Shown: positions 43,320 through 59,541 of the stretch, piece by piece
Position numbering within the stretch: the stretch's first letter is position 1
Layout: each line of letters opens with the position of its first letter
Assembly (NCBI GenBank): GCA_049860595.1
Contig: CP187551.1
Direction: 5' to 3' (one strand)
Length of the DNA stretch: 64,000 bases
Source of the DNA: Methanocaldococcus sp. 16A
GTDB lineage: Archaea > AGJL01 > Methanococci > Methanococcales > Methanocaldococcaceae
Translations under genes and position numbers: made by a program
Notes under the pieces: model-generated
What the model saw: only the letters and a program-made list of their open reading frames with translations
Database searches by the model: none
Told to the model about the DNA's origin: nothing

Positions 43320-44624
43320 ATGGAACTTAATATAACTGGCTTTATTCCCAAACACATGGAAAATAGAGGAAAATTAACTTTAAAAGAAAATTTAAAAATT
43401 ATTGAAAACATCTTAGAGCAAAGAAAAGTTCCTGAAAATGGAATTGATGAAGAGCATATAAAATTTTTACTAAGAATTTTATCCTTTATGGATACGGATA
43501 AAGACCCAAGTGTTATACAAATTGGTGAGAGAGAGGCGAGAGTTTATACCAAACTACAAAGAGAAGGAGTTTTTGACTTCTGTCATGGAGTTGGAAGGAG
43601 TGGAAATTTAATAGATCCTCAACCAAAAGCACCTGGAGCAAGTGTGATGTATAAATTAACCAATAAATTGTTAGAAAGTTTTTTAAAAACTTTAGGATTG
43701 AAAGTTAAAGCAATAGCAACACCTGTAGCTACAGGAATGAGTATTGCTCTATGCTTATCAGCAGCAAGGAAAAAATACAATTCAAATGTTGTTATCTATC
43801 CCTATGCAGCTCATAAAAGCCCTATAAAAGCAACTTCTTTTATAGGAATGAGGATGAGATTGGTTGAGACAGTTTTGGATGGGGATATTGTTAAAGTTGA
43901 AGTTTCAGATATTGAAGATGCCATAAGAAAAGAAATTAATAATAAAAATAACCCAGTAGTTTTAAGCACTTTAACTTTTTTCCCACCAAGAAAGAGTGAT
44001 GATATTGAAGAAATTGCAAAAATATGCCAAGAATATAATATCCCACATATAATAAATGGAGCTTATGCCATTCAAAACTTCTATTATATCGAAAAGTTGA
44101 AAAAAGCTTTAAAATATAGAATTGATGCTGTAGTTAGCTCATCTGATAAAAATCTATTTACTCCAATTGGTGGAGGAATAATTTATACAAAGGATGAGAG
44201 TTTTTTAAAAGAAATTTCCTTAACTTATCCAGGAAGAGCCTCAGCAAATCCAATTGTAAATATTTTAATTTCTCTCTTAGCAATAGGAATTAAAAACTAT
44301 ATAGATTTAATGAAAGAACAAAAAGAATGTAAAAAGCTATTGGATGAATTATTAGAAGATTTAGCTAATAAAAAAGGAGAGAAGGTTTTGAATGTAGAAA
44401 ATCCTATTTCATCATGCATAACAACAAAAAAAGACCCATTAGATGTTGCTGGTAAGCTTTACAATTTAAGAGTTACTGGACCGAGAGGTGTGAGAAAGAA
44501 TGACAAATTTGGGACCTGTTATTTAAAAGAGTATCCTTATGATTATATAGTTGTAAATTCAGCTATTGGAGTTAAAAAAGAGGACATCTACAAAGTTATT
44601 GAGAAATTAGATGAAGTTTTATAA
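43320..44624 (+). CDS. spcS: O-phosphoseryl-tRNA(Sec) selenium transferase (SepSecS)
   Basis: GEREAR, HGVGRSG..QPKAPG, SSDKN, YPGRAS. Confidence 0.95.
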   Translation: MELNITGFIPKHMENRGKLTLKENLKIIENILEQRKVPENGIDEEHIKFLLRILSFMDTDKDPSVIQIGEREARVYTKLQREGVFDFCHGVGRSGNLIDPQPKAPGASVMYKLTNKLLESFLKTLGLKVKAIATPVATGMSIALCLSAARKKYNSNVVIYPYAAHKSPIKATSFIGMRMRLVETVLDGDIVKVEVSDIEDAIRKEINNKNNPVVLSTLTFFPPRKSDDIEEIAKICQEYNIPHIINGAYAIQNFYYIEKLKKALKYRIDAVVSSSDKNLFTPIGGGIIYTKDESFLKEISLTYPGRASANPIVNILISLLAIGIKNYIDLMKEQKECKKLLDELLEDLANKKGEKVLNVENPISSCITTKKDPLDVAGKLYNLRVTGPRGVRKNDKFGTCYLKEYPYDYIVVNSAIGVKKEDIYKVIEKLDEVL

Positions 44625-56773: not shown

Positions 56774-57541
56774 TTATTGATTCTCCTTGTTTTCTTCTTC
56801 TTTCTTATTTTCTTCATTTAATTTCTTTTTAACTTTTTCTATGAGTTTTTTTATTTCTTCTACAGAAATTTTCTTAAATTGTGAATCTTTAACTGTTATT
56901 ACACAAACATCAACATTTTCTGCTTTTATATCTTCATTTGCTTTTGCTAATGCAGTTATGGCTAACTCTAAACCTTCGTCTAATGTTATATCATCTTTAT
57001 ACTCTTTTTCTAACAGCTCCATAACTACAGGTCTTCCACTACCAATTGCAGTCGCTTTATATTCAATTAAAGCCCCACTTGGGTCTGTTTCAAATAATCT
57101 TGCTTCATTTTTATCAATTCCAGCAATTAATAATGAAACTCCAAATGGTCTAACTCCTCCATGTTGTGTATATGCTTGTTTAATATCGCAAATTTTTTTT
57201 GCTAACATTTCAATTGATATCTCTTCCCCATAAGTTAATCTGTAAATCTGAGCTTCCAATCTCGCCCTATCAATTAAGACTCTTGCATCAGCGACTAATC
57301 CAGAGGTAGCAGCAGCGACGTGGTCGTCAATTTGGAATATCTTCTCTATTGACCTAATTTTTACGAGTTTGCTTGTTATTCTTCTATCAACCGCTAATAC
57401 AACACCATCTTTACAGGCAATACCTATCGCTGTAGTTCCTCTCCTTACAGCCTCTCTTGCATATTCTACTTGATATAATCTACCCTCTGGGCTAAATACT
57501 GTAATTGCTCTATCATAAGCACTTGGTGGCACCATTTGCAT
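56774..57541 (-). CDS. psmA: Proteasome alpha subunit
   Basis: [30 protein letters not shown]. Confidence 0.97.
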
Positions 57542-57779
57542 GCTTTCCCTCCTAGTATAATATTAATTAAGTAATCTAAAATAAACATCAACTTTGGATG
57601 TTTTTTAGTTATTCATCTCATTATAATAAATTATTATTTTTATTCTTTTTTATTTTTATGTGTAATCTCATTTTGTTATTGGTTGTGTTAAGTATTGACA
57701 TAACCATAAATTATATATATGATGAGGTATATATGAGATTACGTTATAAAATAAATTAGAGAGTGTGTGGTGATACAGA

Positions 57780-58067
57780 ATGAAGAAGGTAGTTATATCA
57801 GATGAAGCTAAAGAGTTCATCTTAGATAAGTTAAAGAAAGCTAACCAAGATACAGTAGTTATACACTTTGAAGGGTTTGGGTGAGCTGGACCTAAATTTG
57901 GAATTTCAATAGCTCAACCAAACGAAAATGATAAACTAATCTATGACAACGAATTTAAAATCTACATCGACCCTATTGCCGACCAATGGCTTGATGAAGT
58001 TAATATCTCATTAAGAAGGTCAATATTTGGAAAGTCTCTTAAGATAAAAGGTAGTAGTGAGTGCTAA
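57780..58067 (+). CDS. HesB/IscA-like selenoprotein (95 aa, Sec35; not in ORF track)
   Basis: GGTGA RBS; MKKVVISDEAKEFI...FEGFG-TGA(57882)-AGPKFGI...SSEC; frame stays open for 60 codons after TGA; SECIS at 3' end. Confidence 0.9.
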
Positions 58068-58096
58068 CCGGGAACCCAATTTTGGGACCGGTTAGC
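58063..58096 (+). promoter_or_regulatory. Archaeal SECIS element
   Basis: GCTAACCGG-GAA-CCCA-ATTT-TGGG-A-CCGGTTAGC: GAA/A internal loop on a C-G rich stem, followed by a T-run. Confidence 0.9.
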
Positions 58097-58533
58097 TTTT
58101 ATTATTGGATGAATTTATAATTTATACTATTTTTTTAGAGTTGATTAAATTTATAATTTTACAGTATCTACGAATATGTATTAGATATGCATTATACATA
58201 ACTACATTTAAATAATCAAATTTATCTAATAACTTACTCACTTCGACGATGAAGAATTTTAGAGACATACTTTCTTTTTTATTTCGTATTTTAATCCATA
58301 AGTTATGAATAACTCATCTAAGCATAAAAAGGAACAACCTAACTTTTGGAGAGGTTAATTTTGTTTTTATTAATGCATCTTGAAAATATTGCTAATAATC
58401 TATTTACATAGTAGTAGGCGATTTCAAAACTCCCTATGATGCGTATTTTGAAAATATTTAGTTATAATAATGGAATACTATTATGAGTAAGAATGGAGAA
58501 ATAATACAACATAATTACTAATTAGGTGGTAAA

Positions 58534-59541
58534 ATGGAGGTTTTATGCATAGATATTGGAAAAGGGACACAAGATATCCTATATATAGACACCAATAAGA
58601 ATATTGAGAACTCCATAAAGTTAATTCTTCCATCTCCAACAGTAATTTTGGCAGAAAAAATAAAGAAAATGACTGAGGACTTAAGGATAGATGGAGTTGT
58701 AATGGGGGGAGGTCCAGTAAATAAAGCAATATATGAACACATAAAAAAAGGGTTTAAGGTTGAGATATCAGAAAGTGCAGCAAGAACAATAAGGGATGAT
58801 TTAGAGGAGGTAAAAAAGAGGGGAATAATAGTTAAAGAAAGTATAGAGAACCCAAACATCATTTTTAGAGATTTAGATTTTGACATGCTAAAAAATATAT
58901 TTGCATCAATAGGAAAGGAGTTTAATCCTGACTTTGTATGTGTGGCATGCCAAGATCACGGTTTTGTTAAGGGGCAGAGTGATAGAATCACAAGGTTCAA
59001 ATACTTTGAAAATAAGTTAAAAGAGACAAACGACCCATATAAATTTTACTTTGAAGAAAAGACAAATTATTTTTCAAGGTTTGATGCAATCTTAGAAACA
59101 TTAAAAGAAAACAAATACAAAGGATTTGTAATGGATAGTAAGATCGCCTCTATATGCGGAATTTTAAACTATGCAAAGGAAAATGGCATTAATGAGTTTA
59201 TTGGTTTGGACATAGGTAATGGTCATACCTTAGGAGTTTCTATAAAAGATGGGGAAATTGTTGGATTATTTGAGCATCATACGAGACTTCTAACTCCTAA
59301 AAAATTAAAAAACATTGTCGATAAATTGGCAGATGGGTCATTAACAAACGAAGAAATATTTAATGATAATGGTCATGGAGCTGTGGTTTTAGACAGTGTA
59401 AATCCAGAAGAAATTTTAATTGCTGGACCAAATAGAGAAATGTTTAAGGATTATGGAAAATACGCATATCCTGGTGGAGATGTGATGATTACTGGGTGTG
59501 TTGGGTTATATGACGTGTTAAAATCTATAAAGGGATGCTGA
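58534..59541 (+). CDS. DUF1786 family protein (actin/ASKHA-like ATPase motifs)
   Basis: IDIGKGTQD, MGGGP, QDHG, DIGNGHT, FEHHT, GHGA. Confidence 0.85.
   Translation: MEVLCIDIGKGTQDILYIDTNKNIENSIKLILPSPTVILAEKIKKMTEDLRIDGVVMGGGPVNKAIYEHIKKGFKVEISESAARTIRDDLEEVKKRGIIVKESIENPNIIFRDLDFDMLKNIFASIGKEFNPDFVCVACQDHGFVKGQSDRITRFKYFENKLKETNDPYKFYFEEKTNYFSRFDAILETLKENKYKGFVMDSKIASICGILNYAKENGINEFIGLDIGNGHTLGVSIKDGEIVGLFEHHTRLLTPKKLKNIVDKLADGSLTNEEIFNDNGHGAVVLDSVNPEEILIAGPNREMFKDYGKYAYPGGDVMITGCVGLYDVLKSIKGC

Follow-up and report, generated by a model that had tools for sequence, protein, structure and literature searches.

The 64,000-nucleotide stretch of Methanocaldococcus sp. 16A contig CP187551.1 (assembly GCA_049860595.1) that we analysed, referred to here as the window, carries towards its 3' end a short gene on the + strand (57780-58067) for a predicted HesB-like selenoprotein, and a hairpin with the features of a methanogen-type selenocysteine insertion sequence (SECIS) element that begins within the last codon of that gene (Table 1). 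Read directly and translated with TGA as U (selenocysteine, Sec), the frame comprises 95 codons and a TAA stop and contains one in-frame TGA only, at codon 35 in the context GFG-U-AGP, beyond which 60 more codons are open as far as a final TGC (Cys95). Under translation table 11 the same locus gives only a 34-residue open reading frame (ORF; 57780..57884). The 95-residue product would have a mass of ~10.75 kDa (computed with Cys at position 35); it is without a UxxC or CxxU motif and has a U-x-G-P motif in the form U35-A-G-P. An earlier reading of the letters alone (the original prediction) had described a ribosome-binding site, an ATG, a single TGA at codon 35, 60 open codons and a terminal Cys, and each of these was seen directly in the window. 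We consider it highly probable that 57780-58067 is a Methanococcales orthologue of the known HesB-like selenoprotein, i.e., a 95-residue relative of the A-type iron-sulfur (Fe-S) carriers IscA and SufA in which UGA would be recoded by way of the SECIS.

The source genome has the genes needed for Sec synthesis, the set of tRNA-Sec, SepSecS, PSTK and SelD being complete, and the SelD gene itself contains an in-frame TGA. The SepSecS gene that the original prediction had placed in this same window was found there. In the mechanism that we propose, translation would start at the AUG at 57780 and the archaeal Sec system (tRNA-Sec, PSTK, SepSecS, SelD and the Sec-specific elongation factor) would insert Sec at the UGA at 57882, dependent on the methanogen-type SECIS that follows on the same mRNA.

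Table 1. Features of the HesB-like locus, with the SepSecS gene of the window for context
Feature	Position	Strand	Basis
TATA-like A/T-rich box, putative promoter	57707..57721	+	lies inside an upstream block conserved in relatives
Shine-Dalgarno-like GGTGAT, 5 nt 5' of the ATG at 57780	57769..57774	+	direct reading
HesB-like selenoprotein gene (predicted)	57780..58067	+	translation; TIGR01911, 131.5 bits; PF01521, 26.4 bits; orthologue alignment
TGA read as Sec (predicted), residue 35, motif U-A-G-P	57882..57884	+	same column TGA in 37/37 orthologues
C-terminal Cys95 codon, last 2 bases opening the SECIS basal stem	58062..58064	+	direct reading
Methanogen-type SECIS (predicted), including the TAA stop (58065-58067)	58063..58096	+	fold, motif scan, covariation, model R1
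SECIS core: GAA (58072-58074) facing unpaired A58087, with the apical C-G clamp and loop between them	58072..58087	+	
T-rich 3' flank, T4 (58097-58100) and T7 (58130-58136), possible transcript end	58097..58136	+	
SepSecS (O-phosphoseryl-tRNA(Sec) selenium transferase), context only	43344..44621	+	TIGR03531, 609.2 bits; G000:C1:1131344-1132621

Reading frame, family and fold

The orthologues were collected by a six-frame search of 40 Methanococcales genomes, in which the window gene is L001. The HesB-like gene was found in 37 of them, representing five genera, and was not found by this search in G028 (99% complete), G034 (54%) or G035 (86%); a thirty-eighth row of the search is a fragment of 30 residues that lies where a contig ends. 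All 37 full-length orthologues have exactly one TGA each, with Sec at codon 34 or 35, and the sequence downstream of the TGA is conserved in all of them. The invariant columns include G32, the Sec35 column itself, G37 and P38, and between L001 and its nearest relative, L002, the codons that follow the TGA show 6 synonymous and 3 non-synonymous differences. A regular-expression search for a GGTG-type motif within 25 nt 5' of the start was positive for 33 of the 37 (it missed L020, L021, L022 and L024). More distant homologues were sought with a profile among 1.84 billion representative proteins; of the 103 matches, 101 were alignable to the profile. Six of these 101 are fragments that fall short of the Sec column, four of the six being N-terminal stubs that end in FEGFG, and in the 95 that cover the column the residue is Cys (64) or Trp (31) and nothing else. 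A Cys occurs within the last eight residues of 46 of the 64 Cys forms. The original prediction had set beforehand, as its tests, the residue that homologues carry in the Sec column and the fate of the sequence beyond the TGA: the column is TGA in 37/37 orthologues and Cys or Trp in the 95 distant homologues, and the downstream sequence is kept in the orthologues, so that neither test refutes the prediction.

Family identity, as it had been claimed, is borne out by the NCBIfam model TIGR01911 ("HesB-like protein", HesB_rel_seleno), against which the product scores 131.5 bits (cut-off 66.35) over model positions 1-91 of 92; the match made from the DNA scores 128.3 bits. The cut-off of the Pfam model PF01521 (Fe-S_biosyn) is barely reached, at 26.4 bits against 26.3. 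When 14 named control genomes were searched with TIGR01911, the cut-off was passed in Methanocaldococcus jannaschii alone. That the family is not new in this group of archaea, as the original prediction had also said, is clear from PMC2933860, PMC11097638 and PMC13188914 (here and below, sources given by PMC number are cited for the accessible parts of their text). The HesB-like protein of Methanococcus maripaludis was shown by mutagenesis and 75Se labelling to be a selenoprotein, and its function is described as unclear (PMC11097638; PMC2933860), and a 2026 review lists the family with TIGR01911, the motif UxGP and RefSeq examples that are annotated with Sec (PMC13188914).

An AlphaFold2 model of the product, built from the 37 orthologues, has a mean predicted local distance difference test score (pLDDT) of 95.2 and a predicted template-modelling score of 0.86, and its least confident part is the last block (pLDDT 81), which holds the terminal Cys95. 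The best Foldseek matches are Aq_1857, IscA, SufA and an IscA with a [2Fe-2S] cluster (template-modelling scores of 0.65-0.72), and the matches to 1nwb, 1r94, 2d2a, 1x0g, 1s98 and 2apn have E values of 3e-6 to 9e-5. As modelled, the HesB-like product has the fold of an A-type carrier. Such carriers have three conserved cysteines, one in a G-C-S-G loop and two in a C-x-C near the C-terminus, and the Cys of the loop is the first cluster ligand. When the PDB was searched by sequence and by profile, the Cys of this loop in HI1723, Aq_1857 and E. coli IscA came to stand in the Sec column, and by this alignment Sec35 is the equivalent of the first cluster-ligand Cys.

The SECIS element

The hairpin, GCTAACCGGGAACCCAATTTTGGGACCGGTTAGC (34 nt), has a basal stem of 9 bp (58063-58071 with 58088-58096), the trinucleotide GAA facing a single unpaired A, an apical stem of three C-G pairs and one A-U pair (58075-58078 with 58083-58086) and a 4-nt loop of A and U (58079-58082). 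Its fold of -28.6 kcal/mol (z = -5.8) was equalled in stability by 0 of 200 shuffles. It starts 181 nt 3' of the UGA, and 29 of its 34 nt, including the whole core and the apical part, lie 3' of the stop, the remainder being 2 nt of the last codon and 3 nt of the stop. The original prediction had assigned the TGC and TAA codons to the 5' arm, which is right for TAA but, in the Cys codon, for the final two bases only.

We scanned the whole 1.62-Mb genome with a strict GAA/A pattern (GAA; apical stem 3-5 bp long, two or more of the pairs being G-C; 3-9 nt in the loop; an A left unpaired; basal stem no shorter than 7 bp), which gave 7 sites, and five shuffles of the main contig gave 1, 1, 1, 0 and 0; because of this difference between the genome and its shuffles, the hairpin is more than a product of chance. 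It is one of the 7, and each of the other six sites comes shortly 3' of a frame that has an in-frame TGA, these frames being two FwdB-type genes, HdrA, VhuD, VhuU (NCBIfam) and SelD. The genome has two genes for formylmethanofuran dehydrogenase subunit B (TIGR03129), at G000:C1:585241-586721 (L050; 614 bits) and G000:C1:1336309-1337785 (L051; 683 bits), and both have an in-frame TGA and a strict GAA/A SECIS of their own. The mutational definition of the methanogen SECIS in PMC11881835 gives as essential only two As, an apical C-G clamp and a basal stem for which 3 bp or more suffice, with a loop of 4-6 nt. The hairpin of the window has all of these features, so that the methanogen GAA/A SECIS of the original prediction can be recognized as such by its sequence, its activity in recoding being a prediction. 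A covariance model made from the aligned elements, R1, scores the window hairpin at 50.1 bits (E 1.2e-8) and the next site of the genome at 23.3 bits. A further R1 match, at G000:C1:789945-789982 on the - strand within L052 (21.1 bits, E 0.39), is absent from the list of the strict scan; upstream of it on the same strand is a 348-codon frame with one TGA (L052 2898-3944, -).

Across the 37 orthologues the strict motif is present at the stop in 31, and two variants, L021 with one basal mismatch and L028 with AAA/A and a short basal stem, bring the number with a SECIS to 33. An AAA/A variant is functional, at a weaker level, according to PMC11881835. No variation is seen among the 33 aligned elements in the AA of GAA, in two of the apical C-G pairs or in the 3' A, and all 30 distinct rows have C-G at both pairs that adjoin the core. 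Changes on both sides occur in 13 of the 15 pairs, and the covariation score of 0.644 (0.236 in shuffles) was attained by 0 of 500 shuffles, with slid registers scoring 0.06-0.30. Among the nine basal pairs nearest the core, eight show double changes in 8-18 of the 30 distinct rows and the ninth shows them in 1.

Evidence against, and relatives without a detectable SECIS

Several observations weigh against reading the locus as a SECIS-dependent selenoprotein related to the A-type carriers, and they are brought together here. At the level of the family, the score of the product against TIGR00049 is 29.5 (cut-off 58.8), and it is far under the cut-offs of the IscA, SufA and ErpA models. The three-Cys motif of the carriers is absent, in that the first position is Sec and there is one later Cys only, at the very end. 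The disruption mutant of the HesB-like gene in M. maripaludis is viable and still fixes nitrogen, by an unpublished observation quoted in PMC11097638, and any Fe-S role of the protein is for this reason non-essential. Of the 37 orthologues 36 end in Cys; the exception, L011 (G010), ends in Tyr, and as G010 is a draft of 40 contigs this may be either a true variant or an artefact of assembly. In L011 the last codon is TAC instead of TGC, and the same base change also disrupts the 9-bp basal stem at its second pair from the bottom, leaving a contiguous basal stem of 8 bp (10 in L009 and L010).

The 31 Trp residues in the Sec column of the distant homologues belong here as well. They come from a library that holds proteins only, and since 29 of the 31 carry W-x-G-P we read them as miscalled TGA codons; judged from these sequences, Trp in this column is probably a TGA that was mistranslated under a Trp-reading code. 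Cys is found within the last eight residues of 28 of these 31 proteins and is the final residue in 23, and a word-indexed protein search returned 6 proteins, all with Trp in the TGA column.

Two further points concern the hairpin. Rfam gave no SECIS match, either at the gathering thresholds over the whole window or at E values of up to 10 over 57700-58200, where the only matches were at chance level (6A, two snoRNAs and a Wolbachia sRNA), and the assignment for this reason rests on the published motif and on the purpose-built model R1. The rows of the SECIS alignment were moreover selected and anchored by a script that required pairing, and because of that demand the proportion of paired cells in the 33 elements (86%, as compared to 64.6% in shuffles) is biased upward. 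Double changes are less affected by such selection, and the variety of pair types within a column is the stronger evidence.

The last of these points is that 4 of the 17 genomes of the window's own genus have an intact TGA-containing HesB-like gene and no detectable SECIS, the loci being L003/L054 (G007), L008/L055 (G014), L012/L053 (G016) and L013 (G008). The SECIS is gone or broken in each: a short hairpin remnant whose apical part is gone in G007, an insert with a 19-bp inverted repeat that splits the SECIS in G014, and replacement of the 3' flank by a convergent gene in G016 and G008. The codons after the TGA differ between G016 and G008 by 7 synonymous and 0 non-synonymous changes, and SepSecS is kept in all four genomes. 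R1, run with its filters off over the 3.3-kb SECIS-less loci, found no substitute, the best score of 14.2 bits falling on the shortened hairpin; relaxed pattern scans at the four loci gave nothing convincing, and no displaced SECIS was seen on either strand of 17-kb stretches from G016, G007 and G014 (within ~8 kb of the gene). An in-frame GAA...A hairpin around the UGA of L012 and L013 was considered as a substitute and rejected, because the same pattern is present in the SECIS-bearing L014 and L015 (4/37 in all), because it follows from the codons for F-E-G-F-x-U-x-G-P-K, and because such a structure is impossible while the ribosome is decoding that UGA.

Low-level, Sec-independent suppression of UGA is documented in M. 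maripaludis in the accessible text of PMC9622424, where Seyhan et al. 2015 is cited for it. Suppression of this kind may explain the selection seen in the SECIS-less relatives, and recent decay or an unrecognised signal may do so instead. We think it rather improbable that read-through of UGA in the HesB-like family is not strictly dependent on a nearby canonical SECIS.

Possible role of Sec35, position of the SECIS and significance

In the mechanism proposed here Sec35 and the terminal Cys95 would work together, either as ligands of a metal or cluster or as a selenenylsulfide pair. A pair of this sort is plausible from the alignment to IscA-type carriers and from the terminal Cys of 36/37 orthologues. 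We tentatively favour, at somewhat less than an even chance, the ligation of Fe or of an Fe-S cluster by Sec35 and Cys95 between two subunits over a role that is purely redox. The protein could also be a thiol/selenol oxidoreductase and not a carrier, Sec35 and a Cys95 on a flexible tail cycling through a selenenylsulfide in the way of the C-terminal redox tails of some selenoenzymes. The near-universal terminal Cys, which falls where the model is least confident (pLDDT 81), would suit such a tail, as would the circumstance that two of the three carrier ligands are left, and most uncharacterised prokaryotic selenoproteins are probably redox-functional (PMC13188914, as far as its accessible text goes). 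The fold and the position of Sec are nevertheless those of cluster-binding A-type carriers, including a structure with [2Fe-2S]; the protein has no UxxC or CxxU motif; and the neighbouring genes (SBDS, a proteasome alpha subunit and DUF1786) include no redox partner gene, no isc or suf genes and no functional hint. We accordingly hold the oxidoreductase to be doubtful, and ligation of Fe or a cluster stays the role that we would put forward.

The SECIS starts close to the stop throughout the order. In the 33 orthologues that have one, the first base of the basal stem is inside the coding sequence in 16, within the stop in 3, directly after it in 6 and 1-14 nt beyond it in 8; within the genus of the window an overlap is usual. 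This overlap should raise no conflict with the proposed mechanism, because 60 codons separate the ribosome that decodes the UGA from the hairpin, which would melt only once the decoding ribosome nears the last few codons. Closeness to the stop is not special to the HesB-like gene, because elsewhere in this genome the TAA stop of VhuU and the stem of its SECIS (G000:C1:1335026-1335061; L051 5306-5562) have one base in common, the last of the stop and the first of the stem, and the SECIS of VhuD is 21 nt after the stop; the elements of HdrA, the two FwdB-type genes and SelD come 53-125 nt after theirs. No statement about a stop codon inside the basal stem of a SECIS was found in the literature by a phrase search, which was weak and to which the original 2004 description and supplements were external. 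Gene and element being known already, the stop inside the stem adds a minor detail of position.

The original prediction had supposed that the hairpin could double as a terminator, and more broadly an element that embeds the stop could terminate the transcript, protect its 3' end, or couple recoding by one ribosome to the termination of the ribosome ahead of it. Overlap with the coding sequence or the stop in 19/33, together with the nearness to the stop of the other 14, would fit a second job, and so would the T4 that follows the stem. The Ts that had been noted behind the hairpin are these four, the T7 run coming only farther on. A bacterial-type intrinsic terminator, taken as a G+C-rich stem with 5 or more T among the 8 bases directly behind it, is not found at the hairpin, where there is T4 only, and a pattern scan of 57400-58600 by this rule called no site on the + strand and two on the - strand (57988-57965). 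The position of the T run is not conserved, and 10 of the 37 orthologues have no run of T5 or longer within 120 nt. Archaeal RNA polymerases terminate at oligo-T and are not known to need a hairpin, which argues against the second job too, as does the stop-abutting SECIS of VhuU and the nearby one of VhuD. In a reporter, a SECIS placed directly after the coding region works normally (PMC9622424). The terminator of the original prediction was thus not upheld by the pattern scan or by the T runs, and we regard a second job of any of these kinds as quite improbable, somewhat more so than read-through that is independent of a nearby SECIS.

It is barely credible that the TGA is a genuine stop, giving a 34-residue peptide, an untranslated downstream frame and an ordinary 3' stem-loop for stability or termination: although table 11 yields exactly the 34-residue ORF, protein collections hold 34-residue fragments that end in FEGFG (P0031, P0034, P0043) and T4 comes directly after the hairpin, the 60 codons after the TGA are open and conserved, with mostly synonymous changes, in 37/37 orthologues from five genera, TIGR01911 is matched over the full length of the 95-residue product, which has a confident IscA-like fold, the invariant GAA/A core occurs in this genome only behind TGA-containing genes, and the terminator scan made no + strand call.

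Flanking sequence and sequencing runs add some context to the predicted selenoprotein gene. A block at 57686-57721 that ends in the A/T-rich, TATA-like run is closely similar to sequence upstream of the genes in L003, L008, L012 and L013, and is a probable promoter that may include a site for a regulator. The SECIS is separated from the gene that follows, DUF1786 (58534-59541), by an A/T-rich spacer of ~430 nt (58101-58533) with no ORF of at least 60 residues and no Rfam match at the gathering threshold. A search of sequencing runs found small shares only (up to 0.06), in vent metatranscriptome libraries. Libraries X3 and X1 had no contig over the HesB-like locus; library X2, which is probably DNA, had a 252-nt contig over 57816-58040, and RNA library X4 had a 265-nt contig over 57875-58097 with a 42-letter continuation that matches the relative G001 and not this strain. 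These contigs are proof neither of transcription nor of a 3' end, because they show no strand, ends or expression level.

Among known systems the closest is the HesB-like selenoprotein of other Methanococcales (TIGR01911; MMJJ_08070 of M. maripaludis and the M. jannaschii gene), which the window gene resembles in family score, size, single Sec and the U-x-G-P motif as given in PMC13188914, and in having the same kind of SECIS that is found behind 33/37 orthologues, including those of genus g2 of the sister family f2. The differences are that the protein in the window's genus ends in S-S-E-C, with one Cys, whereas that of the seven g2 genomes ends in two, and that in the window the last 2 nt of the final codon already belong to the SECIS, which in several other genera begins 0-14 nt past the stop. 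The window gene has no essential difference from the known HesB-like selenoprotein, and the family, its Sec codon and its type of SECIS are already known from the literature and from NCBI annotation models. With the IscA/SufA/ErpA carriers (PF01521; 1r94, 1s98, 2d2a, 1x0g, 1nwb, 2apn) the predicted protein would share the common fold, a Sec at the place of the first ligand Cys and a Cys in the C-terminal tail; it differs from them by Sec for Cys, by reduction of C-x-C to one terminal Cys, by scores below the cut-offs of the carrier models and by the lack of adjoining isc/suf genes. The SECIS elements of M. maripaludis (fruA, sps, fwuB and fdhA1; PMC9622424, PMC11881835) have in common with that of the window the kink-turn-like GAA/A core, the two As and the apical C-G clamp, as well as the G-C clamp beneath that core, the 4-nt loop rich in A and U, and a place 3' of the UGA at a distance that is within the published range. 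The basal stem in the window, however, is partly last codon and stop, while the accessible parts of that literature describe elements of untranslated regions. The VhuU SECIS of the same genome, which belongs to a hydrogenase subunit gene, is of the same type and overlaps its stop-side sequence by one base, as compared to five for the HesB-like element.

What the locus means in practice is in the first place a matter of annotation. The original prediction held that ORF callers miss the gene, and this stands in so far as protein collections hold 34-residue fragments and forms with Trp for TGA, and fails in so far as a dedicated NCBI model and RefSeq records with Sec exist (PMC13188914, accessible text). 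Callers that use table 11 give the 34-residue stub. Proteins P0002-P0008 and 30 further representatives depict the family mostly as Trp-for-TGA translations or as 34-residue FEGFG stubs, and the occurrence of both in public collections is a systematic mis-annotation of a selenoprotein. Glimmer, as reported in PMC5054222, overlooked the HesB-like gene of M. jannaschii. Conservation in 37 of 40 genomes makes the predicted protein a reasonable target for the biochemistry of selenium as a ligand of metals or clusters. The four relatives without a detectable SECIS are a natural test of how strictly Sec insertion in archaea needs this element: if the full-length protein is made in them, then either an unrecognised recoding signal would be at work or Sec-independent suppression would be enough for selection to act upon.

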